Shown here: piece after piece, positions 10,300-58,563 of the stretch
How the letters are laid out: every line of letters starts with the position of its first letter
Numbering within the stretch: the stretch's first letter is position 1
The notes under the pieces: generated by a model
What the model saw: the letters and a program-made list of their open reading frames with translations, nothing else
The model's database searches: none
What the model was told of the DNA's origin: nothing
From: Patescibacteria group bacterium
GTDB lineage: Bacteria; Patescibacteriota; Microgenomatia; UBA8517
DNA length: 64,000 bases
Reading direction: 5' to 3'
NCBI GenBank assembly: GCA_035692185.1
Contig: DASSIE010000010.1
Location: 2,879-66,878 of the forward strand
Translations under genes and position numbers: made by a program

Positions 10300-10304
10300 C
10301 TTAT

Positions 10305-17828: not shown

Positions 17829-17862
17829 GAGTGTTTACAAATGATGAGTGTTTACAAATGAT
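17829..17862 (+). repeat. 17-bp perfect tandem duplication (gagtgtttacaaatgat x2) at the 5' end/leader of the flippase gene
   Basis: Read directly: 17829-17845 equals 17846-17862. It lies between the upstream stop (17822-17824) and the probable ATG ATG start at 17858/17861. Confidence 0.9.
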
Positions 17863-37601: not shown

Positions 37602-39818
37602 TTGATTGTAACATTAAAGCCAGTGTATTTGTATTTTGGATATAATATACTTGCACAAGTGAAAAAATTAATATTTCGTTTTAAAGACCAACTTTTCCTA
37701 ATTTGTTTATCATCCTCCCTAGTTTTTATATGGTTTTATAAAGGATTGATATTCGCTGGTGGAGAAGAGGGAATACCATTTTATAACCTTAACAATGCGT
37801 TTTACCTTTTTGCATATTCTTGGAGAGATTTTTCAGGTGGAATTCCAATGTCAACTGATTTAGCTAGAATTCCATTTTTTTGGATTCTTAAACTTCTAAG
37901 TAACTATTCAATACCTTCTTACTTTCTCCAAGCCGCCACCTTTTTAACGTTAATTATCGTTGGAGTTGTATCAGTATACTATTTGTTAAAAATAACTTTG
38001 GGCAACAGATTAAAATCAGGTTCACTTTTAGAACAAAGGTTATACAGTAAAGTCTCGCTTATTGGAGCTATTTTTTACCTATTAAATCCCTATTCAATGG
38101 TTCAGGTCTGGGGAAGAGGTTTGTATAACCAGTTTTTCCCCTTTGCGTTACTTCCTTTGTTTCTGGTTTTATTTATTCAGGGTGTTAAAAAGAAAAGATT
38201 TATATATGGTTTGTTGGCAGTTATTTCTTCCCTACTACTATCAGTATCGTTTGGTCAGCCTAGTTATGTTATTTCAATTTGGTTAACAATTTTTATCTAT
38301 ATAGTTTTTGAAGTATTTAAAACAAAAGATTTTGCACAGCGAAAATTTATAATTTTATACTCCTTAACAGTTTTTACGTCATGGATATTGGTGCATTCAT
38401 GGTGGATTTGGCCACTGTTTAAAACAATTAATGAAACGGTTGATAAGTTGGGTGATTTGCAATCTAATATTGGAAGTTTAAAGGGGATTAGTAAGGACTC
38501 TCCAATCTGGGTCATTATGACACTCACCCACAAATTCTTATTTGCAGGAGCTTACGGAAATATATATTCAGGACTTCCCTTTAAATTGATAAGTTTATTG
38601 GTACCAATATCTTTTTTTGTTTCATTACCACTTTTTAAAAGATTTAGTTACTTCAAATTTTATTTATGTTTATTTTTGGTATCAATTTTTATTGTTTCGG
38701 GTACAAATTTTCCATTTGGTTGGCTATTTCTTTGGTTTTTCAAGAATATTTCAATTTTTCAAGTCTTTAGGAATCCCTATGAAAAAATGGGAATTGTGTT
38801 AATGCTTGCTTGTATTCCCTTCATTTCCATTGGTCTTGTAAAAACAAGTATTTTAATACACAAATTTTATAAAAAAATTTCTGCAAAAGTATTTTTATTG
38901 ATTCTTATGTTTTTAATGTGCGGAATTTATGTTTGGCCGATGTGGACAGGTCAATTTGCAGGAGGGGTTGTTATGAGTCCATGGGCTAGTGTGCCAGTTG
39001 ATTACAAACTAGCCAATGATTGGATTAAAAGCCAGGACACAAATTCTCGAATAATTCAATTCCCATTAAACCCCGGGGACGGTGTTTTCTATACATGGCA
39101 AAATGCATATAGGGGAATTGAACCTAGCGAATTTATTTTTGATAATTCATCGATCGGAAGGAATGTGGCTATAAATAAAGTTTACTACAATGTTTTACTG
39201 GAAAGGTTTGGCGTCTTACAGAAAAACGCTTTTGGCCCAGACCCCGATATTTCTTCCTCTGAATTTCGTTCAGAAAATTTATATCAGGAATTAAACAAAC
39301 TTGATGTTAGATATATTGTTTTACATAACGATATTAATGAGAAATTAAGTGGCTTACAAAACTCAAAAGAGGTCTCCCAATATTTATCAAAGCAAAAAAA
39401 TATACAAAAGGTTAATACATTTGGTTTATTAGATATCTACGAAGTTAAAGTTCGCGATGGGGTAGATCGTATATATTCGCCAAATGTAAAGACAAATTAT
39501 CAAAAAGTTAATCCAACTTTTTACAGATTCAATGTTGAAAATTCAACTTCTAAAGCCCAGCTTAATTTTTTGGAAACATATAGCCCAAATTGGGAGTTAT
39601 TTATTGATGGTAAAGAAATCGAAACACATTCAATAGTTTTTTCTTATGCCAATTCATGGACTATCAACAGAACTGGTACCTATTCAGGGTACATTAAATA
39701 CAAAACTCAAGATTATGTTACTGAGGGTGGAAAAATTAGCATTGTAACTTTAATCGTGTTAATAATAATGATTGTGGTTTTAGTTTTGAAAAAGAGAATA
39801 AAAAAAGAACAATGGTAA
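37602..39818 (+). CDS. Large GT-C-like membrane protein with extracytoplasmic C-terminal domain and C-terminal TM anchor (YfhO/AftD-like architecture), paralog 1 of 3
   Basis: 738 aa. N-terminal motif GGEEGIPFYNL and FRNPYEKMGIVL are shared with 44170..47715. C-terminal NWELFIDGKEI...YSGYIKYK beta-rich domain, then the final TM LIVLIIMIVVLVL. Confidence 0.4.
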   Translation: MIVTLKPVYLYFGYNILAQVKKLIFRFKDQLFLICLSSSLVFIWFYKGLIFAGGEEGIPFYNLNNAFYLFAYSWRDFSGGIPMSTDLARIPFFWILKLLSNYSIPSYFLQAATFLTLIIVGVVSVYYLLKITLGNRLKSGSLLEQRLYSKVSLIGAIFYLLNPYSMVQVWGRGLYNQFFPFALLPLFLVLFIQGVKKKRFIYGLLAVISSLLLSVSFGQPSYVISIWLTIFIYIVFEVFKTKDFAQRKFIILYSLTVFTSWILVHSWWIWPLFKTINETVDKLGDLQSNIGSLKGISKDSPIWVIMTLTHKFLFAGAYGNIYSGLPFKLISLLVPISFFVSLPLFKRFSYFKFYLCLFLVSIFIVSGTNFPFGWLFLWFFKNISIFQVFRNPYEKMGIVLMLACIPFISIGLVKTSILIHKFYKKISAKVFLLILMFLMCGIYVWPMWTGQFAGGVVMSPWASVPVDYKLANDWIKSQDTNSRIIQFPLNPGDGVFYTWQNAYRGIEPSEFIFDNSSIGRNVAINKVYYNVLLERFGVLQKNAFGPDPDISSSEFRSENLYQELNKLDVRYIVLHNDINEKLSGLQNSKEVSQYLSKQKNIQKVNTFGLLDIYEVKVRDGVDRIYSPNVKTNYQKVNPTFYRFNVENSTSKAQLNFLETYSPNWELFIDGKEIETHSIVFSYANSWTINRTGTYSGYIKYKTQDYVTEGGKISIVTLIVLIIMIVVLVLKKRIKKEQW

Positions 39819-41002
39819 ATATAAAAATTTTCGCATTAGCGGCATTGGGAAAAGGACTATCAGGAAGTGACAGAATCTTTATAGAATTTGCTAGACGTTG
39901 GCAAAAGAATGGGAACATAATTATTTACGTTAATGAAGAAGGCAGGGAGATGTGTAGAAGACAAAATCTTCAAGAAAGTCAGGGTTTAAAATATGTTATA
40001 TGGAAAACACCAAAGAAGGCAAAATCACAGTTTTTAATTACCTATTTTTATAGAGTTTTTCGCTCGATCTTTGAGTCATTTAAAACTAAATTAGTAAATA
40101 GTCCAGAGACTATTCTCTATTCAGCTTCTGAGTTTTGGATGGATAGCTTGCCAGCTTTTATTTTGAAAATTCGTTACCCTAAAGTTATTTGGGCAGCTTC
40201 ATGGTATCAAACTGCTCCGAATCCATTAGTTGGGTTTGCTGAAGGTAAGAGGGAGAAAGCATATAATTTTAGTGCCTTTTTGTATTTTTTTGCTCAACTT
40301 CCAGTAAAGCCATTAGTAGCTAATTTTTCTGATTGTGTTCTAGTCAATAACGAAGAAGAAAGAAAAAAACAATTCCCAAGGTTAAATAAACTTGGAAGGG
40401 CAATAGTTGTTATCGGTGCAATCGATTTAGAGGGCATAAGAAAGTGGATAAAGTCTCATGGTAAAAGTAAAAAAACTTATGACGCGGTTTTTCAAGGAAG
40501 GTTTCATCCTCAAAAAGGAGTTGTTGAATTAATTGAAATATGGAAAAAAGTAGTCACAATAAAACCAAATTCTAAATTAGCCATGATTGGAGATGGGCCA
40601 TTAATGGGTGATGTCAAAGAGAAAATTCGAAATCTAAAATTAAGCAAAAATATAAAACTATTCGGATATGTTTTTGATGGAGATGAAAAGTACAATATTT
40701 TTTCAAAAAGTAAAATTGTAGTCCACCCTGCCTTTTATGATAGTGGTGGAATGGCTTCGGCTGAAGCCATGGCTTTTGAACTGCCATGTATAGGTTTTGA
40801 TTTAGAATCGTATCGCTCCTACTACCCAAAAGGAATGATAAAAGTTAAAATTGGTGACTTAAAAAAATTTGCGGAGACAATTTTAGACACTTTAGATAAT
40901 AGTCAAAAAAGGAATCGTGTTGGAAAAGAAGCCCTCACAATGATTAGGAAAAATTGGTCTTGGGACAAAAGAGCGAGCGAGGTTTTAGAATTAATAAAAT
41001 AG
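39812..41002 (+). CDS. GT4 family glycosyltransferase
   Basis: HPAFYDSGGMASAEAMAFELPCIGFD. 396 aa GT-B length. Confidence 0.6.
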   Translation: MVNIKIFALAALGKGLSGSDRIFIEFARRWQKNGNIIIYVNEEGREMCRRQNLQESQGLKYVIWKTPKKAKSQFLITYFYRVFRSIFESFKTKLVNSPETILYSASEFWMDSLPAFILKIRYPKVIWAASWYQTAPNPLVGFAEGKREKAYNFSAFLYFFAQLPVKPLVANFSDCVLVNNEEERKKQFPRLNKLGRAIVVIGAIDLEGIRKWIKSHGKSKKTYDAVFQGRFHPQKGVVELIEIWKKVVTIKPNSKLAMIGDGPLMGDVKEKIRNLKLSKNIKLFGYVFDGDEKYNIFSKSKIVVHPAFYDSGGMASAEAMAFELPCIGFDLESYRSYYPKGMIKVKIGDLKKFAETILDTLDNSQKRNRVGKEALTMIRKNWSWDKRASEVLELIK

Positions 41003-41005
41003 ATT

Positions 41006-41884
41006 ATGAATAAATCAAAATTTTTAAGATCGGCAATAGTTAGCAAAAAGCCATTGTTGGCTCAAATTTTATTAAACCCTGTTGTTTCTTTCGTCTACTT
41101 CGTCATTTCTAGGTCTGCAAGATTGTTGAGTGTGCCAGTTTACAAAAAAGCAAAAACTTTTTGGGGCCAAAGTATGGAAGGAATTATAACCGACCCCAAC
41201 TTCTCCTTTATTTATCTTTTTGGTTTTTCGGATGAAGGCTTAACCCAGATGATTATGAAGTACCTCAAAACTGGTATGACATTTGTGGATATTGGAGCAC
41301 ATATTGGTTATGAAACTTTGTTGTCGTCTAAAATAGTTGGCAGTGAAGGTAAAGTTTTTTCTTTTGAACCAACTCCAAATACGTATAATTTGCTTTACAA
41401 GAATACTAGAGAGTTAAAAAACGTTGTAATTAATAATATGGCCGTTTGGTCAAAAAATAGCATTTTAAAACTTTTTGATTTTGGGCTTTCATATTCGGGA
41501 CTAAATAGTTTTTTTAAACCTCGTGTTTCAAAAAAAATATCACAGAGTTTAAAACCGGAAAGTATTAGTGTTCCGGCAATTTCTATTGATGATTACGCCA
41601 AACTTTACAGTGTAAAACCAGACTTTATAAAGATTGATGCTGAGTCTGCAGAATATGATATTATTGTCGGTATGACAAAAACTATCACTGATTTAAAACC
41701 AATTATCGTCCTTGAAATAGGAGATGTTTCAGAAGAGTTTGGTAAAACAAAAAAATGTGTTAAATATTTAAAGAATTTTGGTTATAAAGTTCTTGAATAT
41801 AATGCCGGAATAATTCAGGAGCACATAATTCGTGATAGCTATCTTGGTGTTTATGACAATCTTCTATTTTTACCACTAAAATGA
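41006..41884 (+). CDS. FkbM-family SAM-dependent methyltransferase
   Basis: MTFVDIGAHIGYETL, FSFEPTPNTY, ISIDDY, PDFIKIDAESAEYDII are typical of the FkbM (Methyltransf_21) fold. Confidence 0.6.
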   Translation: MNKSKFLRSAIVSKKPLLAQILLNPVVSFVYFVISRSARLLSVPVYKKAKTFWGQSMEGIITDPNFSFIYLFGFSDEGLTQMIMKYLKTGMTFVDIGAHIGYETLLSSKIVGSEGKVFSFEPTPNTYNLLYKNTRELKNVVINNMAVWSKNSILKLFDFGLSYSGLNSFFKPRVSKKISQSLKPESISVPAISIDDYAKLYSVKPDFIKIDAESAEYDIIVGMTKTITDLKPIIVLEIGDVSEEFGKTKKCVKYLKNFGYKVLEYNAGIIQEHIIRDSYLGVYDNLLFLPLK

Positions 41885-43479
41885 AAAAGGAAAAACTTGT
41901 TTCTGTAATTATTGTTACTAGAGATAGAAAAAAAGATTTGTTAGAGTGCCTTAATTCCTACGTTAAATCTTCATACAAAAATATTGAAATAATTGTAATT
42001 GACAATGCAAGTCGGCCACCGGTTCTTACTTGGTTACCAAAGAAATTTAAAAATGTAAATTTGATTACCAGGGATACAAATGTTGGAGCCGCCGAAGGAA
42101 GAAATATTGGAATTGAAAATGCCAAAGGTGAATATCTAATTTTTACAGATGATGACGCATATGCAGGCCGTGATATGGTTAAAAATTTGATTGATGTGTT
42201 TGCTAAGCAAAAAAAAGCAGGAATTGTTCAGCCTTTAATATACGACAAAAACAAAAAGAATTTTCTTCAGGGTGCAGGTCACGATGTAAATTTATTGACT
42301 GGAAGAATTAGAGCTTGGGGAGTTCAGGAGAAAGATATGGGCCAATATGATGGAATTCGCGAGGTCCCGCTTTGCGGATGCGTTTGGATGGTTAAAAGAA
42401 ATGTAATTGAAAAAATCGGCAACTATGATGAAGATTATTTTATACCATATGAAGATTCAGATTTTTCGATGAGGGCAAGAGAAGCCGGGTTTAAATTGTA
42501 TTGTTATTCAAAAGCTAAAAGTTGGCATCAAGGAATTAAAAAAACATTTGTTCACCCTAGAATTGAGTGGTTGGGTATTACTTCAAAAGAAAGAGCATTC
42601 AGAGTAGCAAAAAATAAAATGATCTTTATGCGAAAACATTCCCCTTTTCCTCAAAATATATTTTTCTTTTTAATCATGTTACCTGCATATATCCTAGTTC
42701 ACTCCGCCATAATAATATCCTCAGGAAGATTTGATGTTTTGTGGCAGTACTTTTTAGGGATATTGTCTGGAATCTTATATATATTATTTTACCCATTTTT
42801 TGGACTCCGGAAGGTTTATAAAGACATTGACAAAAAACTAACATCATCAAAATTGTTTCTGATGGCTTGGACCGAACCAATAGGATGGCTTATCAATAAA
42901 AATGCAAAAACAATACTTGATGTTGGTTGTGGAGAAGGACTTCCAATGCGTTTTATTAAAATTAGAATGAAACCAAAGCACACAGTTGGGGTAGATTTAT
43001 TCGAGCCATATATAGAAGAGTCTCGAAAGAAGAAAATCCACAATGAATACGTCCTTTCGGATATAAGAAAGCTTCCATTTAAAAATAAGTCTTTTGATGT
43101 CGTGATATCTTTACAAGTTTTAGAACACCTTACCAAGAAAGAAGCCTGGTCAGTGCTCGAAAAAATGGAAAAAATTGCAAAGAAACAAGTGATTGTTGCG
43201 ACTCCGGTCGGTGAGATGTATCATCCTGCAGTGGACAGTAATCCACTCCAGATGCATCAATCGGATTTCCAGGCAAAGGATTTTGAGGATCGAGGTTACA
43301 AGACTTTGCAATTCGGCAGAAAAAGTCTTTTTGGTGAAGAAGGCATTGTTCATAAAGTGAAGAATGACTTTTTGAGAAAATTAATATATTTTGTTAATAT
43401 TCTTTTGACACCATTTTTTTATGCAATACCATCTATAAATGATTACCATATTTACGCTGTAAAAGATTTAACTAAATAA
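41881..43479 (+). CDS. Bifunctional fusion: N-terminal GT2 glycosyltransferase, C-terminal class I SAM methyltransferase
   Basis: VSVIIVTRDRKKDLLECLNS...IEIIVIDNAS...FTDDDA (GT2), then membrane helices, then ILDVGCGEGLP...FDVVISLQVLEHL (MTase motifs I and post-II). 532 aa. Confidence 0.6.
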   Translation: MKKEKLVSVIIVTRDRKKDLLECLNSYVKSSYKNIEIIVIDNASRPPVLTWLPKKFKNVNLITRDTNVGAAEGRNIGIENAKGEYLIFTDDDAYAGRDMVKNLIDVFAKQKKAGIVQPLIYDKNKKNFLQGAGHDVNLLTGRIRAWGVQEKDMGQYDGIREVPLCGCVWMVKRNVIEKIGNYDEDYFIPYEDSDFSMRAREAGFKLYCYSKAKSWHQGIKKTFVHPRIEWLGITSKERAFRVAKNKMIFMRKHSPFPQNIFFFLIMLPAYILVHSAIIISSGRFDVLWQYFLGILSGILYILFYPFFGLRKVYKDIDKKLTSSKLFLMAWTEPIGWLINKNAKTILDVGCGEGLPMRFIKIRMKPKHTVGVDLFEPYIEESRKKKIHNEYVLSDIRKLPFKNKSFDVVISLQVLEHLTKKEAWSVLEKMEKIAKKQVIVATPVGEMYHPAVDSNPLQMHQSDFQAKDFEDRGYKTLQFGRKSLFGEEGIVHKVKNDFLRKLIYFVNILLTPFFYAIPSINDYHIYAVKDLTK

Positions 43480-43480
43480 T

Positions 43481-44194
43481 ATGTTTAAAAAATTTGTTAG
43501 GAACGTTGTCAAGGTTGTTTATCATGCAATGCAAAAGACATCGATTGGAAGAGTAATCGAGGAAGAATTTGAAATGTTTGCCTATTCTGGTACAGGGTCC
43601 AGGCATTTTGAATACCCGTTTGCCATATCTGAGGTTCTTAAAAAGAAAAGCAAAATAAAAACAATTCTTGATGCTGGAAGTTATGGTTCACTTTTACCAC
43701 TTATCCTTGCCAGTATGGGATTTAAAGTTACAGGTGCTGATATCAATTTTTGGGAAGTTAAATTTCCGAACTTTTCTGCAGCAAAGGTTGACTTAAAAAA
43801 GATCCAATATAAAACTAGATCCTTTGATTGTGTAACCGCAGTATCCACTATTGAGCATGTAGGACTACCACGTTTTCGTGAAGAGATTGATGAGAATGGA
43901 GACATTGATGCAATGACAGAGCTTGTCCGAGTTTTAAAAAAGGGTGGGCCTCTTGTTTTAACTGTGCCATATGCACCAAAATACAGGGTGTGGTCTAATA
44001 AAGGACGTTTTTATGATTCAAAAAGATTGGCACTTCTAACTGAAGGGATAAAGATTACAAAGAAGGAATTTTTTGGACCATTGGGTTCAGGTGGGCACAA
44101 TTTTGGATCTTGGACCGAAAAACAAGCAAATACAAAGAAATTTAAGCGAGAAGGTGATCACTGTGTAGTTTGTTTAGTCGGTGTAAAGATATGA
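43481..44194 (+). CDS. Class I methyltransferase-like protein
   Basis: ILDAGSYGSLLPLILASMGFKVTGADI (motif I-like), FDCVTAVSTIEHV, LKKGGPLVLTVP. Confidence 0.45.
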   Translation: MFKKFVRNVVKVVYHAMQKTSIGRVIEEEFEMFAYSGTGSRHFEYPFAISEVLKKKSKIKTILDAGSYGSLLPLILASMGFKVTGADINFWEVKFPNFSAAKVDLKKIQYKTRSFDCVTAVSTIEHVGLPRFREEIDENGDIDAMTELVRVLKKGGPLVLTVPYAPKYRVWSNKGRFYDSKRLALLTEGIKITKKEFFGPLGSGGHNFGSWTEKQANTKKFKREGDHCVVCLVGVKI

Positions 44195-47100
44195 TTAATG
44201 AAAAGAGAAACTTTTTTTTTAATCCCTTCATAATTTTTGTTGTAATATCTACAATTTTGACGCTAATTTGGTTTAAAGATGGGTCTATCCTTGGTGGTGG
44301 TGAGGTAGGGGCCCCTTTTTATAATTTGACCAGAATGTATGAAATGAGCAATATGGCGTGGTCTGATAGGGGTTTAGGCAAGTCCACTGGTTTTAGTGTT
44401 GGCGGGGCAGCATATTATGCCTTTTTTAATTTCTTCCAAAATATTGGAGTTCAAGGCTATATTCTTCAGGCATCCTTCTTTTTTATCTGTTTGCTTTTAA
44501 CACTTATCTCTTCTTATTTATTAATGAGGGAAGTTTTGCCCAAATTAGGAAAAGCAAGTTACTTGTATGCTTCTTTGTTTTATCTTGTTAATCCATATTC
44601 GCTCGTTAACATCTGGAACAGATTTCTTCCGAATCAAATAATATTTTATGCATTTTTACCACTCGGTATTTGGCTTTTTATTTATGGATTAAGGACAAAA
44701 AAATATTATTTCGCGATTTTAAATATGATTTTAACCGCAGTGTTTTCAGTTGCTTTTATAGGTCCTGCGCAGACTCTAATTTTTTGGGGATTAATGTTTT
44801 TAGTTGGTCTCTATTATTTTATATTTGAAAAGAAGGATAAATTTGTGTTTCTTTATTTTATATTAAACGTATTATTGTGGCTTATTTTTAATTCATTTTG
44901 GGTTATACAACAAATTTCTTTCAGATTTTCTCAAACTTATACAACAGTAAGTAATTTGTTTTTTACATCAGTTGGAAATTTTGAAACTTTTAACTCATTA
45001 AGTAGGCAATTGGGAAAATTATCAAATCTTTTTTTACTGCAACACGGACCATTTTTTGAAGATACTTTTGGGTTTCAATATAATTGGCCAGCTGTTTACA
45101 ACCATCCAATATTCCTTATTTGCCAATGGGCATTCATAATATATGTATTATCCATTGCGATCAAAAATATTAAGTCGTATTGGATTAACTTTTTCTTCTT
45201 AGTATTCCTAATAGGTATTTTTATTTCGAAAGGAAATTCTCAACCTCTCGGGGAAGTTGTTGATTTTTTATTCAAAAGAATATCATTCTTAGAGTTTTTT
45301 AGAAATCCATTCGAAAAAGCTGGAGTTCTGATTGCATTTGGATTAACACCTCTGGTTGGTCTTGGATATTCTAAAATATCTCAGTATGCAAACAGTTTAA
45401 GACGATCAGCAAAGTTATTTATTTTGTATATTCCTTGGGTTTATATAACCATTTTAGGTTTTCCGTTTTGGACTGGATTTGTCTTTACTAACGGCTATTC
45501 TCCAAGTAACAATATAAATATTGGATACCAAGTTGTCCCGCCGGATTATTATTTATCAGCAGACAACTATCTTTCTGAGCAACCTGGGTTATTTAGATTT
45601 ATGTCATTGCCTATTGGTGGGGAAGGAATTTACAATAATTGGCTTAAAGGTTATGTTGGCGTCGAGCAGTCTGGGGTTTTGTTTTCAACTCCCAGTTTGT
45701 CATACGACACCACAATACCATTGTATAGTGGAGTAGTTTCCAAAATTGAAGAATTGTTTATACGCTACCCAGATTTTTACAGGTTAGCAGGAATGCTAAA
45801 CCTTAAATATCTTGTTTTTAGATCAGATTTTGATTATGTTCGTTCGGGTATGCGGGATCCGAATGTTATAGAACAACTTTTGGCAAAAAGAATTTTGGAT
45901 CCCAATTCGAAAATATCATTTGATTCAAATTTTTTACCACTTAAAATTTTTAAATTTGCCCAAGATATAACACTGCCTAAAATATATGCTGCAAACAAGA
46001 ATATAAATAGCGATCTTGCGGGATCATTAGAAGATGCACTAATTGTTCAAAATGAACCAAGAGATGTAATCAGCAATTACAATAATCCAAATTTGGATGA
46101 TAGAACTTATGCAAACATTTCCCATAGTCAGACCTTTTTTAATTTGGGAGAAAAATATCCGACGTACTCCGAGGATTATTATATTTTTCCATACGTAAGC
46201 GTTCTACCTAGTTCATATAAATATAAGTTAGTTTTGATAAAAGAAAAACTTCAAAGAATATTGATGCTAAATAATACAGACAGAGTTTCATTCGATATTC
46301 TTTTATTGGGCAAAAGACTTAAAGAGGCTGAATTGTCGTTAAGCACAAATGATTTTAAGTCCGCCCATATCTCTTTGGACGGTTACAATTCAACCATGCC
46401 GCAGGTTGTAAAAGAAATAAGTCAGATGTCCGGACTTAAACAACCAGATGAGAGAACTTGGAAAGAAGGTGAGATGTTTACTATATTTAGTAGCCACATA
46501 TTTTTACTTAATAAATTTGAAACCAACGAAATTAACAAAGATGGATATGTTAGTAAAATTAAATCAAACTTGGTTGAAGAGACTTCACTGGCGAAGATTT
46601 TGCCAAGATTTAGTCCTATCGGGGATAACAATTTTTCAACTTCAAACAGATTAGTTTATCAATGGAAAACAGATAAAGAAGGAATTTATGAGATGTTAAT
46701 TCCTAAAACTACTTTATTTCCAAGTAAGTTTAACATCCCAAAGATGTTGGAAATTCAGTTAGATGACCATATAAAGAGTGTTTACGTCCAAGACACAAAG
46801 GAAGGTATATCACTTGGTGTTCAAATATTAACTAAGGGATTACATGAAATTCAGATTGTCTCTCCAGCGTCGAGCAATATGCTCAGTGACAACTTTGGTT
46901 ATTCACTAGATGTTTCATCTGGATCAACTGAGCAAAAACTGTTGTTTCCTAAGTTTGACCCATACTCGCAATATGTCATTAACTTTGATTATAAAATATT
47001 TTATGGGGCTGGTTTAAATTTCGCGATAAAGGCAAATACAGATCAAGTCGATCGAAAAACAAACGAACAGCGGTATTCATTCAGTAAAGGTTTATCGTCA

Positions 47101-47715
47101 GATGGATACTGGTACGACAATAAACATTTCTCCGGCATTTTTAAACCTTCGTCAAAGTCTGATTCCGCAGAAGTTATATTTTCAACCTCAGTCTGGAATA
47201 ATTGTAACGAGGTTTATTTAAATATTTCAAAAAAATGTTTAGACCCAGAAACAAGAAAAAAGTTTGATAGGCCTACCAAAATCGAAATCAAAGATATAAA
47301 TATTTCTCCACTTATTCCACAACAATTATTTCTGATATCTAAAAATGATACAAATAAAAAAGTAGAGATACCCGAAATTGAATTTAATAGACTTAACTTT
47401 ACGAAGTATCGTGTAACGGTTAAAGGAGCAAAATCCCCCTACTTATTAGTTTTATCTGATCTTTATGACTCCGGATGGGCGGTGTATTCTGATAACATAG
47501 AGTTAGATACTAAAAATCATTTTTTGGTTAATGGTTATGCAAATGCCTGGTGGATAGATAAAAATGGTGACTACAATTTAGATATTGTTTATAAGCCTCA
47601 ACAAGTGCTTAGCATTGGATATAAAATATCGTTTATTGCCATTTCACTATCGTCAGTATTTTTGATCCTTGTTACTATTAAAAATTATCTAAAGCGATTC
47701 AAAAACAAGATATGA
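44170..47715 (+). CDS. Giant GT-C-like membrane protein (YfhO/AftD-like architecture), paralog 2 of 3
   Basis: 1181 aa: about 430-aa polytopic N-domain (GGGEVGAPFYNL; FRNPFEKAGVL), about 700-aa soluble domain, C-terminal SGWAVYSDN...NGYANAWWIDKNGDY, then the final TM ISFIAISLSSVFLILV. A T9 homopolymer sits at codons ~14-17. Confidence 0.4.
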   Translation: MFSRCKDMINEKRNFFFNPFIIFVVISTILTLIWFKDGSILGGGEVGAPFYNLTRMYEMSNMAWSDRGLGKSTGFSVGGAAYYAFFNFFQNIGVQGYILQASFFFICLLLTLISSYLLMREVLPKLGKASYLYASLFYLVNPYSLVNIWNRFLPNQIIFYAFLPLGIWLFIYGLRTKKYYFAILNMILTAVFSVAFIGPAQTLIFWGLMFLVGLYYFIFEKKDKFVFLYFILNVLLWLIFNSFWVIQQISFRFSQTYTTVSNLFFTSVGNFETFNSLSRQLGKLSNLFLLQHGPFFEDTFGFQYNWPAVYNHPIFLICQWAFIIYVLSIAIKNIKSYWINFFFLVFLIGIFISKGNSQPLGEVVDFLFKRISFLEFFRNPFEKAGVLIAFGLTPLVGLGYSKISQYANSLRRSAKLFILYIPWVYITILGFPFWTGFVFTNGYSPSNNINIGYQVVPPDYYLSADNYLSEQPGLFRFMSLPIGGEGIYNNWLKGYVGVEQSGVLFSTPSLSYDTTIPLYSGVVSKIEELFIRYPDFYRLAGMLNLKYLVFRSDFDYVRSGMRDPNVIEQLLAKRILDPNSKISFDSNFLPLKIFKFAQDITLPKIYAANKNINSDLAGSLEDALIVQNEPRDVISNYNNPNLDDRTYANISHSQTFFNLGEKYPTYSEDYYIFPYVSVLPSSYKYKLVLIKEKLQRILMLNNTDRVSFDILLLGKRLKEAELSLSTNDFKSAHISLDGYNSTMPQVVKEISQMSGLKQPDERTWKEGEMFTIFSSHIFLLNKFETNEINKDGYVSKIKSNLVEETSLAKILPRFSPIGDNNFSTSNRLVYQWKTDKEGIYEMLIPKTTLFPSKFNIPKMLEIQLDDHIKSVYVQDTKEGISLGVQILTKGLHEIQIVSPASSNMLSDNFGYSLDVSSGSTEQKLLFPKFDPYSQYVINFDYKIFYGAGLNFAIKANTDQVDRKTNEQRYSFSKGLSSDGYWYDNKHFSGIFKPSSKSDSAEVIFSTSVWNNCNEVYLNISKKCLDPETRKKFDRPTKIEIKDINISPLIPQQLFLISKNDTNKKVEIPEIEFNRLNFTKYRVTVKGAKSPYLLVLSDLYDSGWAVYSDNIELDTKNHFLVNGYANAWWIDKNGDYNLDIVYKPQQVLSIGYKISFIAISLSSVFLILVTIKNYLKRFKNKI

Positions 47716-47933
47716 TTTATTGGATTTTATTAATAATTATTATTATTTTTACAAAATATAAAGTTGCTAGTGGGACTCTCTTTCAAGCAGGTTTAATAAT
47801 GATGCTAGTTGGAGCTTTTTTTGATATTTTTAAACTAACTGATATTTCAGAAATGTTGTTAAGTGCGGCATTAATTCTTTGGGTTGTTGGAATTGTCGGA
47901 ACCTGTATAGATCTATATAAACATAAATTATGA
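47712..47933 (+). CDS. Small hydrophobic membrane protein (73 aa), unknown
   Basis: Two to three predicted TM helices. Translationally coupled (ATGA) between two giant paralogs. Confidence 0.3.
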   Translation: MIYWILLIIIIIFTKYKVASGTLFQAGLIMMLVGAFFDIFKLTDISEMLLSAALILWVVGIVGTCIDLYKHKL

Positions 47934-50683
47934 TTAAGCGTGATACTGTTTTTCTGATGTTGATTTTGATCTTTGTCTTTTTTAATTTATTTTTGCCATT
48001 TCCACATATTGCATCCGATCTTCACCTTAGTTTTAAAGATCAACTTTTATCCCAATTTTCCATTCCTTCAGCTTGGACATCTAGTGGTTCTTCTGGTCTT
48101 GGACAATCTGCTTCTCTTTTACTTTGGAATTGGCCAATAACATTTTTGTTTGGGGCTTTTGGAAAATTAGGAATGTCCCACCAATTTCTGCTTAAAATTT
48201 TTGGTTTCCTTCCGATTATTTTACTTGGTATTTTTTCACTTAATAAATTTTTTGAAAAAATAAAAATTTCTGAAAATTCAAAACTTGTCGCGAAAGTGTT
48301 TTATATGACAACTACATATTTTCTACTTTTAGTTGATGGTGGACAATTATCAATCGCCCTTTGTTATGCATGGTTTCCTTTTTGCTACATTAAGTTTATT
48401 GAATGTGTTGATGGTAATATATCTGACAAAATCGTCGCTGCTTTGTCTATAACCATTTTAGGATTTTTGGATATTAGATTTATATATGTACTATTAATAC
48501 TAATATTCCTTCATTTTATATTTAACTTAGTTTTTTTGTCATTCAAGGAATGGAGTTCACATATTGGTAAATGGTTCAATGCCATTTTTGCAATTGGAAT
48601 AATCGGTATCACCATTAATTTTTATTGGATTTTGCCGATTATTTTATCAAGGTCAACAGACGCTTCGTTGTTAAATATTCGTGAGTCTCAAACCCATTTT
48701 TTAAATTTTACTCAGTTTAAAAATGCAATCTCCCTCCTTCAGCCACATTGGTATAGAAATATTTTTGGAGTGATATCTGCATTTAAAAAAGAGTTTTTAT
48801 TTATACCACTTCTGGCCTTTATGTCACTATTTATGTATAGGAAAAACAAAAGAGTGTGGTTTTGGACCCTGATAGCAATAATTTCAGTTTTTTTAACAAA
48901 AGGAGATAACCCTCCATTTTCAGGAATTTATCCGTGGTTATTTACACATATACCTGGATTTTTCCTATTCCGCGATTCAACAAAGTTTTTCTTTTTAGTT
49001 TCCCTTTCGTATGCAGTTTTAATTTCGTATACAGTTGATAGTTTAATAAAAAGATTACCAAAAATTAAAATTATTTTTCCTGTTTTATTAATTTTATTTT
49101 TCCTTTTTTTAACGAGACCTATTTTCCTTGGTCAGATGACAGGAATATTTTCAAAGCCTTCATATACGGATGAGTATTTATCTCTTGGAAATAAACTTGA
49201 GAAGGACACATCATTTGGAAGAGTATTGTGGCTACCTCTCAAAGCCCCAATGGGTTTTGCATCGTTAACGCATTCAGGAATTGAAGCTAATAGATTGGAA
49301 TCAATTCGCCCATTTGCTATTGGTACGGTTGGGGCATATGAAACGCAAAACTTTATTAGGGAAGCAGACTACATGGGTGAGCTTTTTAGTATTGCTGGGA
49401 TAAAATATATTACATATCCATATCTAGATCCAAAGCGTGACGATATGTTAAAAGAAAAAGTAGATTATTATGGTACATTCTCAAATCAAATTAAAAGTTT
49501 ACTTTGGGTTGGCGACACAGTTTCCGATTTTCCAATATCAGTTTTTAAAACAAAAGAAAATGAGGGAAAAATTTTCCTTTCCAAAAATACGTACTATGTG
49601 GTCGGTTCTGATAGATTGTATTCAGATATTGTAAAATTAGGCGCGAAATTTAAAGATAACGCTTTAGTATTTGTTGAAGAAGGCAAAAATTTAATAAATA
49701 AAATTGTAGAAACACCAGGTGCAAATATAATTGTTTATGATAAAAATCTTACAGATTTAGCACTATCCTTCACCCAAACCAGCAACTTTATTTCACCAAG
49801 TTCAATTCTAGGATTTTCGCCAGGCAAAACTGGCTGGTGGAAAAGGGAAGCAATCGACTTGGTATGGACTCGCGATTTTTTGCAACAAAAATATGGCATT
49901 GATAATTTAGATTTTGATTACGGGGAAGGGTGGGCGATTGCTGAAGGAGATAGGGAATTAACAATTACCAATAACCAATTTACAAAAGGGAAAATACTTT
50001 ACGCAAGAGTTATGGAAAGCAGTAGAGGCGGGAACATTGAATTTTGGCAGGGGAACAATAAACTTGGGGAAGTAAATACAAAAATTGAAACTCCCGAGAA
50101 AGTTGTAATAAAACTAACAGGAAACGTTACCTTGCCAGATAAATTTTATAGATATGATAAAGCAAACTTTCATTGGGTGAAAATTGGAGAATTGTTGAAT
50201 AATTCTAATTTAACAATAAACACAAAAGGTGACATAAACATACTTAACACTTTAGCTGTAATTTCAAAAGAACAGGAAAACAATATTTTCCAAAGTGTTG
50301 ATAAATTAGTAAACGACAAAAAAATAGTAGAATGGGATAGTCTAACAATTAGCGATAAGAAAAAATTGCTGTTTGGCGCAGACACACCAATCGTTTCATA
50401 CACAACACTTTCACAAACGCATTACAAAATTAAGGTCGAAGGATTAAAAAATCCGACCACTTTATTTTTTTCAGAGACCTTTGATAGTAATTGGGAGTTG
50501 AATAATCAAAAAGGATACAAACTGTACAGTTTTATAAATGGTTTTTGGATTGACCATAATGGGGAATACGATCTTTATTTTTCCCCGCAAAAATATGTGC
50601 TTCCAGGGCTCATTGTAAGCATGATAACTCTAGCTTCTTGTATAATGTTTCTTATATGGAAAAGATCAAAGAAATCTTCCTAA
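47930..50683 (+). CDS. Giant GT-C-like membrane protein (YfhO/AftD-like architecture), paralog 3 of 3
   Basis: 917 aa. Polytopic N-domain, large soluble domain, C-terminal SNWELNNQKGYKLYSFINGFWIDHNGEYDLYF, then the final TM LIVSMITLASCIMFLIW. Same C-terminal module as the other two. Confidence 0.4.
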   Translation: MIKRDTVFLMLILIFVFFNLFLPFPHIASDLHLSFKDQLLSQFSIPSAWTSSGSSGLGQSASLLLWNWPITFLFGAFGKLGMSHQFLLKIFGFLPIILLGIFSLNKFFEKIKISENSKLVAKVFYMTTTYFLLLVDGGQLSIALCYAWFPFCYIKFIECVDGNISDKIVAALSITILGFLDIRFIYVLLILIFLHFIFNLVFLSFKEWSSHIGKWFNAIFAIGIIGITINFYWILPIILSRSTDASLLNIRESQTHFLNFTQFKNAISLLQPHWYRNIFGVISAFKKEFLFIPLLAFMSLFMYRKNKRVWFWTLIAIISVFLTKGDNPPFSGIYPWLFTHIPGFFLFRDSTKFFFLVSLSYAVLISYTVDSLIKRLPKIKIIFPVLLILFFLFLTRPIFLGQMTGIFSKPSYTDEYLSLGNKLEKDTSFGRVLWLPLKAPMGFASLTHSGIEANRLESIRPFAIGTVGAYETQNFIREADYMGELFSIAGIKYITYPYLDPKRDDMLKEKVDYYGTFSNQIKSLLWVGDTVSDFPISVFKTKENEGKIFLSKNTYYVVGSDRLYSDIVKLGAKFKDNALVFVEEGKNLINKIVETPGANIIVYDKNLTDLALSFTQTSNFISPSSILGFSPGKTGWWKREAIDLVWTRDFLQQKYGIDNLDFDYGEGWAIAEGDRELTITNNQFTKGKILYARVMESSRGGNIEFWQGNNKLGEVNTKIETPEKVVIKLTGNVTLPDKFYRYDKANFHWVKIGELLNNSNLTINTKGDINILNTLAVISKEQENNIFQSVDKLVNDKKIVEWDSLTISDKKKLLFGADTPIVSYTTLSQTHYKIKVEGLKNPTTLFFSETFDSNWELNNQKGYKLYSFINGFWIDHNGEYDLYFSPQKYVLPGLIVSMITLASCIMFLIWKRSKKSS

Positions 50684-51921
50684 CAGCTACTTTTAGACAG
50701 TCAAGCCTAACGACTTTTGGAACAATTGCCAATGGCTTCCTAGGTGCAATTTTTTACATTCTTGTTGCAAGAATGTTGGGGCCAGCACAATTTGGACTTT
50801 TTAGTATAGCTACACTTGTTTTAAACATGGTGGCAGATATTGGGGATTTGGGAACAAATACTGGACTTGTTAGGTTTGTAGGTGGAAATAGAGTTAACAA
50901 CCCGGAAAAAGCAAATAGATTTTTAAAACTTGGGTTAGAGGTAAAAATATTGGCATCTATAGTTATTGGAGTAGTTGGGGTCTTGGCGTCTTCCTGGATT
51001 GCAGTTTTCTTATTTAAAAAACCCGAACTTACTAATCTTTTACAGTTTGCATTTATCGGTGTTTCTGGTTCGTTACTTTTTTCTTTTATTTTGACAACAC
51101 TGCAAGCATATGAACGTTTTTGGTCGTGGAGTTTAATTCAAGTAATATCCAATAGCGGAAGAGTGATATTAATAATATTTTTTTATAATTTTTTAACGGT
51201 TTCACCAATTACTTCAATGGGGATTTATATAGTTATACCACTATTAAGTTTTATAGCGGGTCTTTTCGTGACTTCAACACGATTTTTTAAGGTAAGAGGG
51301 GAGACTTCAGAAATTAAAGAATTTTTTCATTACAACAAATGGGTGGCCCTATTTACCTTGATTGCAGCTTTCTCTGCACGTCTAGATAGTTTTCTAACTG
51401 CAAGATACTTAACTTTTTTTGAGATTGGAATTTATGCGGCTGCCACACGTGTTACACAAATAGTTCCTCAGATTGTTGGAGCAATTTCAACAGTTGTGGC
51501 ACCAAAAATGGCAGGAATTGGTACAAAAAGTGAATTCATAGAATATATGAAAAAGACTCAACTTTTTGTTTTTTCAATCGCACTTCTTGGGATACTGTCA
51601 ATTCCAGTAATCTCCTATTTAATTCCAATCATTTTTGGCAGTGCTTATTCGGCTTCAATACCGATATTTATAGTATTACTTTTTGCAATGTTATTTTTAT
51701 TAATCTCAATACCAGTACACACTGCAGTTTTTTATTATTTTTCCTATCCTAAACTTTTTGTCTGGATAAGCACCGCCCATTTAATTATAGTGGCTCTAAG
51801 TGGGTATTTCTTTATCCCCACATATGGGGTTATGGCGATAGCATACAGCGTATTGTTTGCTGGTATAGTTGATTTTGTGGTTCCTGGTATTTGGGTACTT
51901 AACAAATTACGAAAGGCATAG
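50638..51921 (+). CDS. wzx: Wzx-type oligosaccharide/polysaccharide flippase (MOP superfamily), intact
   Basis: FGTIANGFLGAIFYILVARMLGPAQFGLFSIATLVLNMVADIGDLGTNTGLVRF. About 12 TM helices. The true start is possibly MEKIKEIF at 50656. Confidence 0.6.
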   Translation: MYNVSYMEKIKEIFLTATFRQSSLTTFGTIANGFLGAIFYILVARMLGPAQFGLFSIATLVLNMVADIGDLGTNTGLVRFVGGNRVNNPEKANRFLKLGLEVKILASIVIGVVGVLASSWIAVFLFKKPELTNLLQFAFIGVSGSLLFSFILTTLQAYERFWSWSLIQVISNSGRVILIIFFYNFLTVSPITSMGIYIVIPLLSFIAGLFVTSTRFFKVRGETSEIKEFFHYNKWVALFTLIAAFSARLDSFLTARYLTFFEIGIYAAATRVTQIVPQIVGAISTVVAPKMAGIGTKSEFIEYMKKTQLFVFSIALLGILSIPVISYLIPIIFGSAYSASIPIFIVLLFAMLFLLISIPVHTAVFYYFSYPKLFVWISTAHLIIVALSGYFFIPTYGVMAIAYSVLFAGIVDFVVPGIWVLNKLRKA

Positions 51922-54087: not shown

Positions 54088-54792
54088 ATGTTACTTTCAA
54101 TAATTATCCCCGTTTTTAATGAAGAAGATACTGTAAGTGAAATACTAGAAAAAGTTATGAAGGTAAAACTTCCAAAGAAATTGCAAAGGGAAGTGATAGT
54201 AGTTAATGACCGCTCAACTGATAATAGTTTAAAGAAATTAAATGGAATTAGAGGCATAAAGGTTTTAAATCATAAAACTAATCAAGGTAAAGGTGCGGCG
54301 ATTAGAACAGGTATCCAAAATTCAACCGGTGACATTTTATTAATTCAGGATGCAGATCTTGAATATGACCCAAACGACTATCCAAGGCTTTTGAAGCCAA
54401 TTTTAGATGGTAAAACTAAAGTAGTATACGGGACCAGACTTAAAAATTATCCGATAAAGATTTTTGGCAGAAAACATACGCCTTTCTTAACTCATTTTTT
54501 AGGAAATAAATTTCTCTCTCTTATCACAAGAATACTTTATAGAAGTAAGGTTACCGATATGGAAACATGCTATAAGGTTTTTAATAAAGAATTAGTTAAA
54601 AATATTGTAATTAAATCCAATAGATTTGAGTTTGAGCCGGAAATAACTGCAAAAATTTTAAAAGCTGGTCATAAAATTCACGAAGTATCGATTAATGTAA
54701 TTCCAAGAGGTTATGATGATGGAAAGAAAATTACCTGGAGAGATGGATTTATAGCAATTTGGACTTTGGTTAAGTATAGATTCACAGATTAG
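54088..54792 (+). CDS. Dpm1/ArnC-like GT2 polyprenol-phosphate glycosyltransferase
   Basis: LSIIIPVFNEEDTVSEILEKV...VIVVNDRSTDNS...NQGKGAAIRTGIQNSTGDILLIQDADLEYDP...TDMETCYKVF. Confidence 0.65.
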   Translation: MLLSIIIPVFNEEDTVSEILEKVMKVKLPKKLQREVIVVNDRSTDNSLKKLNGIRGIKVLNHKTNQGKGAAIRTGIQNSTGDILLIQDADLEYDPNDYPRLLKPILDGKTKVVYGTRLKNYPIKIFGRKHTPFLTHFLGNKFLSLITRILYRSKVTDMETCYKVFNKELVKNIVIKSNRFEFEPEITAKILKAGHKIHEVSINVIPRGYDDGKKITWRDGFIAIWTLVKYRFTD

Positions 54793-56512: not shown

Positions 56513-57238
56513 ATGAAATTATCTGTAACAATAATTACTTTAAATGAAGAGAAAGATTTATCAAGATGTTTAGAATCAGTAAAAAATTTTGCTGACGAAA
56601 TTATATTGGTTGATTCCGGAAGTAGTGACAAAACTCTCGAAATTGCAAAGAAGTTTGGTTGCAAAGTTTATACTCGTAAATTTGATAATTTTGCGAGTCA
56701 AAAAAACTTTGCAGCAGAAAAGGCAACTGGAGAATGGATTTTATCAATTGATGCCGATGAGCAGATAACGCCAGGACTTTTAGAAGAAATTAAGATTGCT
56801 ATCATTGATGAGAATTATAGTGGCTATTCCATTCCCAGAAAAAATATAATTTTAGGAAAATTTATAAAACACACACGTTGGCAACCAGAACTCGATCGCC
56901 ATATCTGGCTTTGGCAAAAGGGAAAAGGCAAATGGGCTGGAAATGTGCATGAGGAACTTTTAGTTGATGGAAAAATTGGAAAACTTAAAAATCCTAAAAT
57001 TCATTATCAATACGAGTCTGTTACAGAATTTTTGCAAATGATGAATAAATACTCGAGGTTAGAAGTTCGAAAGAGGTTTTCATTTGCAAGACTTATATGG
57101 GATCCATTCTATAATTTCGTAGTCAGGTATTTTTACAGACTTGGATTTTTAGATGGGCGAGAGGGGTTTGTTTTGTCTTACCTTATGGCAATATATCATT
57201 TGGAAGTTTGGGTTAAAGCTTGGGAGAAAAATAGATGA
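56513..57238 (+). CDS. GT2 family glycosyltransferase (paralog of 14822..15682)
   Basis: LSVTIITLNEEKDLSRCLESVKNFADEIILVDSGSSDKT...IDADE. C-terminal FLDGREGF. Confidence 0.6.
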   Translation: MKLSVTIITLNEEKDLSRCLESVKNFADEIILVDSGSSDKTLEIAKKFGCKVYTRKFDNFASQKNFAAEKATGEWILSIDADEQITPGLLEEIKIAIIDENYSGYSIPRKNIILGKFIKHTRWQPELDRHIWLWQKGKGKWAGNVHEELLVDGKIGKLKNPKIHYQYESVTEFLQMMNKYSRLEVRKRFSFARLIWDPFYNFVVRYFYRLGFLDGREGFVLSYLMAIYHLEVWVKAWEKNR

Positions 57239-58563
57239 TCACAATTTTAATAATAATAATTCTAATTAACGTTTTTGTATTGTCAAAGCTTGTATTTTTT
57301 CCGTATCCTGAACTTTTTATTTATCCATATCTAACTAACCATGGTCTTATTCCTTACACCGACATACTCGACCAACATTTTCCAGGTCTTATTTTTTTTC
57401 CTGTTAACCTTGGAACATTGGGAATGCATTCCCCAGAAATTGCTCGCTATTGGCAGTATGGGGCGGTCGTAATTATCCACCTAATTTTGTATTTAGTTGC
57501 AAAAAAGATACTAGGGCCAAAAAAAGCATTACTCGCAAATTTAATATTTTTAATTTGGCAGCCATATTTTGAAGGATGGGTTCTTTGGATTGATTCGTTT
57601 TTGCCAATTCTAATTCTATCTTCGCTTTATTTTCTAATATCTAAGAAAAACTTTTGGTCAGGATTTTTTCTTGGCGTAGCACTTCTTTTTAAACAAGTAA
57701 TAGCGCCACTTATTGCACTCGTTGGACTTTACATACTTTTTAAAGAAAGAAAATTCAAACCAGCCTTCATATTTAGTCTGGGTGTACTAATACCAACCTT
57801 ATTTTTAATTAAATATGTAAACGATTTAGGCATTTGGAAGGATTTTATTTTTTGGACTGTCACTTTTAATACCGGTGTTTTTGCCGAAATGGGTAGGAAA
57901 TATGGAACAATAAGTGAGATTGCAAGGGTGGTGGGTGTATACGGGTTTGCAGCTTTTTCTTTTTTTGACGAAAAATTTAGAGAGAATACACTTCTGATTG
58001 GAATATTTTTAATAGGATCGCTGGCGAGTGTTTATGCCAGGTTTGATTTTGTACACCTCCAACCGAGTTTGCCATTTGTAGCACTACTAAGCGCGATATC
58101 GATTAATTGGCTTTTAAAAAAGAAATATTTAAAGGTTTTGATTGCAATATACATATTGGTGGCTATTTATTTACTCTCACAATTTTATAAGGGTCTTGTT
58201 GGATCAAAAATTTTTTTCCAGGGAGAAACAGAAAGACGTGTAACACAAGTGGTCCAAAGATTATCAAAAAAGGAAGACAAAATATTTTCTCTTGGAACAA
58301 TGCCGATAGTTTACGAAATGGCAGATAGGCTCCCCCCAGGGAACGTTTTTGTTTTTCAATTCCCTTGGTTTATGACTGTAGCAGAAAACCGTATTTTATC
58401 GGGTATAATTAGTGATCCACCAAAGGTTGTGGTGAGAGACGTCAACGCGGTTGTTGAGGGTAAAAAGCTGATTTTATATATGCCCAAAATTAACGACTAT
58501 ATAAATGAGCATTATAAAGTTATCGATAAAATTGATGAAATTGAAATAATGGTTAGAAAATAA
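57235..58563 (+). CDS. Polytopic integral membrane protein, putative GT-C-like glycosyltransferase (DUF2029/GT87-like)
   Basis: 442 aa. First loop LIPYTDILDQHFPGLIFFPV, about 10 TM helices. GVALLFKQVIAPLIALVGLYIL resembles a motif in 1008..2189. Confidence 0.35.
   Translation: MITILIIIILINVFVLSKLVFFPYPELFIYPYLTNHGLIPYTDILDQHFPGLIFFPVNLGTLGMHSPEIARYWQYGAVVIIHLILYLVAKKILGPKKALLANLIFLIWQPYFEGWVLWIDSFLPILILSSLYFLISKKNFWSGFFLGVALLFKQVIAPLIALVGLYILFKERKFKPAFIFSLGVLIPTLFLIKYVNDLGIWKDFIFWTVTFNTGVFAEMGRKYGTISEIARVVGVYGFAAFSFFDEKFRENTLLIGIFLIGSLASVYARFDFVHLQPSLPFVALLSAISINWLLKKKYLKVLIAIYILVAIYLLSQFYKGLVGSKIFFQGETERRVTQVVQRLSKKEDKIFSLGTMPIVYEMADRLPPGNVFVFQFPWFMTVAENRILSGIISDPPKVVVRDVNAVVEGKKLILYMPKINDYINEHYKVIDKIDEIEIMVRK

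Follow-up and report, generated by a model that had tools for sequence, protein, structure and literature searches.

What do three very large membrane proteins contribute to a patescibacterial cell? The question is raised by a 64,000-nucleotide stretch of DNA from a Patescibacteria group bacterium of the Microgenomatia (contig DASSIE010000010.1 of assembly GCA_035692185.1; hereafter the window), which encodes three such proteins, here called A, B, and C, and a small hydrophobic open reading frame (ORF), S, between B and C. Patescibacteria are mostly uncultured and seem to live attached to host cells; their surface chemistry is little known. A preliminary description of the window had likened the three proteins to YfhO and AftD, glycosyltransferases (GTs) of the GT-C type. 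We propose, with a probability of about 0.7, that A, B, and C are paralogous AftD-clade GT-Cs that glycosylate a surface glycan extracytoplasmically from polyprenyl-phosphate sugars and belong to a conserved Microgenomates-type operon.

Judged by sequence comparison, A and B are close paralogs and C is a distant one, whose full-length homology is seen by profile methods. BLASTP aligned A with B at 27% identity over 627 amino acids (aa; E = 6e-56) and recovered a common C-terminal module in each pairing (A/B, E = 7e-12; B/C, E = 2e-12; A/C, E = 2e-7), but by this method C has only its C-terminal ~100 residues and a short transmembrane (TM) stretch in common with A and B. With family alignments of 38 (A), 53 (B), and 67 (C) sequences, hhalign joined the B and C families at a probability of 100 (E = 3.4e-46 over 894 aligned columns), and the A-family hidden Markov model (HMM) matched protein C at E = 7.5e-35. 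HMM matches across the families ranged from E = 1e-29 to 1e-35 and fell into two pieces, the TM domain and the C-terminal module. The paralogy claimed in the preliminary description is therefore upheld, for A and B by BLASTP and for C by profiles. The three family HMMs found no further match among the other ORFs of the window, and its other membrane proteins lacking a Pfam family were rejected as additional paralogs on the same ground.

Two N-terminal motifs, GGGE[VE]G[AI]PFYNL and FRNP[FY]EK[AM]G[VI]L, had been thought to occur in all three proteins. They are exact in B and loosened in A, where they read AGGEEGIPFYNL and FRNPYEKMGIV; C lacks both and instead shows HIASDLHL and FRDSTKFFFL in the corresponding places, with DGGQ between them. 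The C-terminal pattern proposed earlier, [ST]..[DS].[NG]W.[LV], matches none of the three as written, the actual consensus being approximately S[ED]x[FY]DS[GN]Wx[LV]. Residues common to the A, B, and C families, in that order, are E55/E45/D30, W74/W64/W49, G80/G70/G58, P185/P164/P150, G367/G355/G325, P371/P359/P329, R390/R378/R348, K395/K383/K352, W664/W1103/W855, and N684/N1125/N870. The acidic residue among them falls in outer loop 1 of the topology model, is invariant as E55 in the 38 A sequences and as D30 in the 67 C sequences, and is present as E45 in 91% of the 53 B sequences; hhalign aligned the three with one another, so that the conserved acidic position sought in the preliminary description has a counterpart in each family. 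Further invariant positions accompany it in the A family (E55, R172, R390, E394, and K395) and across the 67 diverse members of the C family (D30, DGGQ, R348, D349, and K352). From this conservation in all three families, a catalytic role of the outer-loop-1 acidic residue and of the equivalents of R378 and K383 is plausible. In AftD, K39, D41, E251, K361, and D474, which surround the equivalent cavity, are essential (bioRxiv 10.1101/2019.12.22.885152).

AlphaFold models of B and C were built from the family alignments (predicted local distance difference test 91.0 and predicted template modeling score 0.86 for B; 91.8 and 0.88 for C), and A was placed through its full-length alignment to B. 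Taking helices from the models, and counting two short helices in outer loop 1 as juxtamembrane, B and C are predicted to have 11 TM helices with the N-terminus inside; AftD likewise has 11 N-terminal TM helices (bioRxiv 10.1101/2019.12.22.885152). The short inner loops delimited by the model helices contain K/R and nearly no D/E, outer loops 1, 2, and 5 hold the conserved motifs, and all three proteins end 3–11 residues past a single TM anchor in basic tails (KKRIKKEQW in A, KNYLKRFKNKI in B, and KRSKKSS in C). Because the inner loops are rich in K/R, the motifs lie in outer loops, and the C-terminal tails are basic, we infer that the large soluble domain is extracytoplasmic. The B family also has a near-invariant Cys pair (C1012/C1023) between its carbohydrate-binding module (CBM)-like region and the terminal beta module, which is probably an extracytoplasmic disulfide and agrees with the soluble part being outside.

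The overall architecture outlined in the preliminary description, a polytopic N-terminal domain followed by a large soluble region, a common C-terminal beta module, and one TM anchor, is found in all three proteins (table 1). Its guess that the soluble region of B holds carbohydrate-binding folds also agrees with the model, which predicts CBM-like beta-sandwiches and, in addition, a DUF5667-like helical bundle. The bundle region of three B homologs matches DUF5667 (PF18915) at ~650–755, and the counterpart of B residues 436–660 in homologs aligns to ~406–572 of the Pfam GT-C_AftD model. A has no CBM-like sandwich, only the terminal beta module.

Assignment of the proteins to the GT-C fold and the AftD clade is supported, for B and C by the models and for A by its alignment to B. 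AftD was the best solved-structure match for both models in Foldseek, aligning with the B model across whole chains at E = 1.2e-17 versus 8e-6 for the next GT-C. An HMM search for the AftD family pointed the same way: A scored 28.6 bits against PF11847 (GT-C_AftD/DUF3367), above the gathering cutoff of 26, nearly all of the 152 A homologs carry this family, and several B homologs match it collinearly at 26–38 bits over model positions ~60–550 of 661, whereas B and C themselves do not reach the cutoff.

The AftD half of the YfhO/AftD-like label thus stands, but the YfhO half does not: none of the three proteins matches PF09586 at E <= 1, and the Pfam labels among the ~340 homologs listed were PF11847, PF18915, or PF10131, never PF09586. 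It is very improbable that the three are YfhO-type GT-Cs decorating teichoic acids, as in Bacillus and Listeria, where YfhO works with CsbB and GtcA. The general logic is alike (PMC8035078), in that a GT2 polyprenyl-phosphate sugar synthase is combined with a small membrane protein and with a large GT-C that has an outside domain, and one of the 53 small partner proteins encoded next to B-type genes has a stray YfhO match (E = 0.049), but these partners are not GtcA/GtrA-like, and teichoic-acid genes of the TagF or LtaS type were not seen among the window ORFs scanned.

The C family is very large, with 9,374 cluster representatives at E <= 1e-3 (a number that probably includes A/B-type relatives) and 1,853 at E <= 1e-30, and has no Pfam or NCBIfam model; its members listed and ten distant representatives had no Pfam match. 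The sole curated-family match of C is to the NCBIfam MmpA model NF053599 (35.1 bits against a cutoff of 210, residues 297–440 only), which A and B do not match. According to its describers, MmpA shows partial homology to residues 1–668 of AftD and has no recognizable catalytic domains (PMC8698533). The match of C therefore fits kinship with AftD, MmpA being AftD-related, and it can also be read as a sign that at least C, and possibly the others, is an inactive scaffold or transport factor like MmpA (Rv0226c) that organizes envelope assembly or aids lipid-linked export. That C has other residues in place of the GGGE and NIWNRF motifs found in A and B would suit such a role. We regard it as distinctly improbable, given a score of 35 against a cutoff of 210, the retention of D30, DGGQ, R348, D349, and K352 in 67 members, a pattern that would fit an active site, and a predicted CBM-like module that would fit a glycan acceptor.

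The gene neighborhood agrees with a function of the AftD-clade proteins in glycan synthesis. By a Pfam scan of ~55 ORFs, the entire window is given over to glycan biosynthesis, with many GT2 and GT4 genes, about ten methyltransferases, sugar epimerases and dehydratases, six PMT/PMT_2-type GT-Cs, GT87-like and PIG-V-like proteins, and two Wzx-type genes. The core of the preliminary description, GT-C enzymes with an extracytoplasmic soluble domain in a surface-glycan cluster, is supported. The gene order A, GT1, GT2, and methyltransferase genes, B, small ORF, C, Wzx, GT2, one or more methyltransferases, an ~235-aa GT2, and GT4 recurs in three unrelated metagenomic contigs (L001–L003). A C-family pattern scan of species-representative genomes found 77 loci, in Woese-, Davies-, Ames-, Blackburn-, Levy-, and Gottesmanbacteria. 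Sixty of the loci had enough flank to look upstream of C, and in 48 of them a same-strand A/B-type gene of >=900 aa ends no more than 2.6 kb before C (median gap 499 nt). A Wzx gene lies right after C in every locus examined.

Proximity to Wzx in each of these loci, together with the absence of any Pfam Wzy or O-antigen-ligase domain among the ~55 window ORFs scanned, could mean that one or more of the three proteins are en-bloc transferases acting on a Wzx-flipped polyprenyl-diphosphate oligosaccharide, in the manner of an oligosaccharyltransferase (OST), polymerase, or ligase, and OSTs are indeed the next-best folds after AftD. This seems to us rather unlikely: neither the three proteins nor any of the 158 aligned family members (38, 53, and 67) contain the OST motif WWD[YWF]G, AftD is far closer than the OSTs by Foldseek, and a conserved DPM1-like GT2 could supply a monophosphate donor. 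A Wzy could, moreover, still be among four window proteins without a Pfam match (472–630 aa; table 1), which none of the three family HMMs matches and which, if they are membrane proteins, could include the Wzy-type polymerase of the island.

For AftD-clade GT-Cs in this setting, we infer donor, acceptor, sugar, and linkage as follows. The cytoplasmic DPM1-like GT2 would load a sugar onto polyprenyl phosphate, the lipid-linked sugar would be flipped to the outer face of the membrane, and each of the GT-Cs A, B, and C would add the sugar at a different position of an outer-face glycan. The neighboring GT2, GT4, and methyltransferase enzymes would make this acceptor, and Wzx would export it. The beta-sandwich modules would hold the polymer acceptor, as do the CBMs of AftD (bioRxiv 10.1101/2019.12.22.885152). 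The GT2 is a candidate for making the lipid-linked donor, with scores of 102 bits to AglJ, 66 to PpgS, and 54 to ArnC in NCBIfam, all below the equivalog cutoffs, as well as a likeness to Dol-P-hexose transferases, and in L001 and L002 orthologs of 59–61% identity occupy its position. Arabinofuranose is an unlikely sugar, because the scan of the window ORFs showed no gene of the decaprenyl-phospho-arabinose pathway (UbiA- or DprE-type). A role of A, B, and C as polymerizing or branching enzymes, suggested in the preliminary description, is conjectural.

Several points weigh against this proposal. B and C match no Pfam family at E <= 1, and the PF11847 match of A is only marginal (28.6 vs. 26 bits). 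Single-sequence phmmer searches of the Protein Data Bank (PDB) with A, B, and C returned nothing relevant, the B- and C-family profiles did not reach AftD, and the A-family profile, although it placed AftD (6w98/6wbx) at the top in four collinear pieces, did so at a nonsignificant E = 0.29, the best value of the sequence-based profile searches of PDB, none of which was significant. One of these pieces pairs the C-terminal beta module with AftD residues 1199–1265 at a domain score of about −3.5 bits, so that a correspondence between the two is suggestive only. The structural alignments show no more than 10–13% identity to AftD, and the structures of B and C are predictions in which AlphaFold may have drawn on a learned AftD fold. 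E45, E55, and D30 were equated to AftD D41 by loop position, not by residue-level superposition. MmpA, a relative within the clade, is described as a noncatalytic lipid-transport factor. On the donor side, any pathway assignment is tentative, the GT2 lies far below every NCBIfam equivalog cutoff, no dedicated polyprenyl-phosphate sugar flippase was identified, and S has no GtrA or SMR signature.

The small protein S is itself part of a conserved arrangement. As stated in the preliminary description, two of the giants, B and C, flank a 73-aa hydrophobic ORF with ATGA coupling, and the overlap is present at both junctions, B/S and S/C. A hydrophobic ORF of 50–170 aa (median ~111 aa) with 3–4 TM helices comes after 63 of 70 B-type genes, most often overlapping the B stop codon by 4 nt. 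The HMM of this small-ORF family matched S at 39.5 bits over HMM positions 41–107 of 113, and no in-frame upstream extension of S exists; S therefore lacks the first helix of the family and, on this sequence evidence, is an N-terminally shorter member of the ~111-aa membrane proteins accompanying B-type genes. S belongs to no Pfam family. When 53 family members were searched against Pfam at E <= 1, no family was matched by more than two of them, and GtrA (PF04138) and SMR (PF00893) were not among the 25 most-matched of 40 families; no PDB relatives of the small family were found. Among 81 related loci there were no fusions of B with the small protein and no longer fused forms. In the most divergent loci (L073, L077, L078, and L081), the B-type stop is overlapped by the C-type gene itself (offset −3), with no small ORF between, and the small partner is therefore not universal.

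S could be a subunit replacing TM13–16 of AftD, a flippase, or an assembly factor. Taken further, a B-type protein and its coupled small protein (usually ~111 aa and 4 TM helices) might form a two-polypeptide AftD, or the small protein might be a new type of flippase, and together with the C family they would make up an undescribed Microgenomates-wide envelope-glycan machine; we offer this as a doubtful, tentative idea. If true, the machine would comprise the AftD-like GT-Cs (two or three), a small subunit, Wzx, and a DPM1-like GT2, building a heavily O-methylated surface polymer.

All of the ORFs (738, 1181, 917, and 73 aa) are present where the preliminary description had put them (table 1). 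The NCBI records for A, B, and C (loci VFI61_01465, _01490, and _01500), to which the window is 100% identical, match what are the probable true starts of A and B, a GTG at 37659 for A, giving 719 aa, and an ATG at 44191 for B, giving 1174 aa. The latter is coupled by ATGA to an upstream methyltransferase that matches DUF268, a family whose name was taken from Caenorhabditis. GC content is ~33% across the window.

Table 1. Features of the locus and of the surrounding window; residues are numbered from the longest ORF, and domain assignments in B and C follow the predicted models
Feature	Residues	Positions	Strand	Remarks
Protein A		37602–39818	+	738 aa, TTG start; minimal AftD-like GT-C with TM domain, outside alpha/beta domain, C-terminal beta module, and one TM anchor
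A, acidic residue	E55	37764–37766		Codon
A, C-terminal beta module	~625–705			
Protein B		44170–47715	+	1181 aa, TTG start; expanded AftD-like GT-C
B, GT-C TM domain	1–435	44170–45474	+	11 predicted TM helices
B, outer loop 1	E45	44302–44304		GGGE; positions are those of the E45 codon
B, outer loop 5	R378, K383			KGNxxP...FRNPFEK
B, soluble GT-C domain	436–660	45475–46149	+	Mixed alpha/beta, predicted extracytoplasmic
B, helical bundle	685–807	46222–46590	+	Five long helices
B, beta-sandwich region	827–1030	46648–47259	+	CBM4/16/22/61-like
B, Cys pair	C1012, C1023	47203–47238		Near-invariant
B, C-terminal beta module	1036–1141	47275–47592	+	W1103, N1125, and W1127 invariant
B, TM anchor	1146–1170	47605–47679	+	Single
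Protein S		47712–47933	+	73 aa, three hydrophobic helices
Protein C		47930–50683	+	917 aa; divergent AftD-like GT-C
C, TM domain	1–399			DGGQ at 136–139; FRDSTK at 347–352
C, acidic residue	D30	48017–48019		Codon
C, outside alpha/beta domain	413–660			
C, beta-sandwich	668–778			CBM6/35/36-like
C, shared beta module	821–884			
C, TM anchor	888–910			
Wzx-type flippase (Polysacc_synt)		50638–51921	+	Directly downstream of C; position kept in related loci
GT2		54088–54792	+	234 aa, polyprenyl-phosphate sugar synthase-like (the DPM1-like GT2 of the text)
Non-AftD GT-C gene(s)		8821–14825	+	
Non-AftD GT-C gene(s)		6112–7788	−	
Non-AftD GT-C gene(s)		57235–58563	+	
Non-AftD GT-C gene(s)		1008–2189	+	
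Non-AftD GT-C gene(s)		16679–17824	+	
ORF without Pfam match		2739–4631	−	
ORF without Pfam match		29579–31351	−	
ORF without Pfam match		4659–6104	+	
ORF without Pfam match		20651–22069	+	
Partial Polysacc_synt ORF		17831–18511		226 aa
ORF following it		18527–19138		No Pfam match
Triple fusion		26626–29082		818 aa; NAD-dependent epimerase/dehydratase, methyltransferase, and GT2
GT2–methyltransferase fusion		41881–43479		532 aa
DUF268 methyltransferase		43481–44194		

Other features of the window and of the related loci deserve mention. At least 11 GT-Cs are encoded in the 64 kb: three AftD-like, a tandem of four PMT_2-type, two PMT-like, one GT87-like, and one PIG-V-like mannosyltransferase. 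The 226-aa ORF at 17831–18511 matches the first ~190 of 274 Polysacc_synt positions and, with the ORF that follows it, may represent a split or frameshifted second flippase gene. Besides the triple fusion, the window holds a fusion of GT2, two hydrophobic helices, and an S-adenosylmethionine-dependent methyltransferase, which has an equivalent of equal length and architecture at L002 7598–9196. Related loci often have two tandem B-type genes, many with their own small ORF (L003 10001–20285; L014, L015, L022, L023, L026–L030, L032, L034, L036, L039–L041, L043, and L062), where the window has one long B and a short A 4 kb upstream. Many of the species-representative genome records with the locus, TPA_asm entries from binchicken/SRP isolates, bear the name "uncultured Gammaproteobacteria bacterium" (L005, L010–L013, L016, L018, L020, L022, L023, and others), which looks like a placeholder or wrong name.

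A literature search found nothing that links Patescibacteria or the candidate phyla radiation (CPR) with AftD or GT-C enzymes, or that characterizes these proteins or their cluster; one paper touching on Patescibacteria, the cell envelope, glycosyltransferases, and teichoic acid deals with an unrelated protein superfamily. The earlier statement that such proteins are uncharacterized in CPR-like organisms agrees with this outcome, but the A family is already covered by PF11847 and named by NCBI, some of its members being called "alpha-(1->3)-arabinofuranosyltransferase family protein". What is new is the annotation of the C family and of the small partner; B is a marginally captured, expanded form, and A had been captured by Pfam and NCBI naming. 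The finding extends a known enzyme class and introduces no new enzymatic principle. Its meaning is that a conserved set of AftD-like, predicted extracytoplasmic glycosyltransferases is found in Microgenomates inside very large, methyltransferase-rich glycan islands, whose ~ten methyltransferases in the window predict O-methylated sugars. The C family gains a structural annotation, and attention is drawn to a small membrane partner that is conserved. For the question of which polymer coats these cells, there are now residues to mutate (E55, E45, D30, and the R/K motif) as well as a defined set of genes.

Among known systems, the OSTs STT3, PglB, and AglB are set apart by the WWDYG motif, missing in A, B, and C, by Foldseek E-values ~12 orders of magnitude weaker than those of AftD, and by the extra beta-sandwich modules and C-terminal TM anchor of the A/B/C proteins, which are not OST features. 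MmpA (Rv0226c/NCgl2761) resembles them in being polytopic, related to AftD but smaller, and equipped with a single outside domain (PMC8698533). It differs in its size (~475–545 aa), in lacking a CBM-like module and a C-terminal beta module, and in working in trehalose-mycolate transport. We know of no such transport pathway in Patescibacteria. Three-component systems (GtrA/GtrB/Gtr*; CsbB/GtcA/YfhO; Citrobacter ORF15/14/12 of GT136) follow the same logic as that predicted here, a GT2 synthase, a flippase, and a GT-C, and include a GT-C with CBM that modifies a polymer outside the membrane and is fed by a GT2 synthase and a flippase (PMC11127046). In contrast to these, the locus described here has GT-Cs of the AftD clade, three in number and with no YfhO signal, and by sequence the small membrane protein next to them belongs to none of GtrA, SMR, and MATE.

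AftD itself (Rv0236c; Mycobacterium abscessus structures 6W98, 6WBX, and 6WBY), a mycobacterial enzyme that attaches sugars to polymers of the cell wall on the outside of the cell, is longer, with ~1400 aa versus 738, 1181, and 917 aa here. It has a C-terminal TM13–16 bundle that binds acyl carrier protein, whereas A, B, and C are without the bundle and thus have no site for this partner. The DUF5667-like helical bundle of B is not among the described domains of AftD, A lacks any CBM, and the patescibacterial host has no mycolate/arabinogalactan envelope. Against these differences, A, B, and C are like AftD in their GT-C fold with, according to the models, 11 N-terminal TM helices, in an acidic residue in outer loop 1, in an outside alpha/beta GT-C domain, in beta-sandwich modules of CBM type, in a beta module right before the re-entry TM helix (TM12), and in the polysaccharide-synthesis context of their genes.

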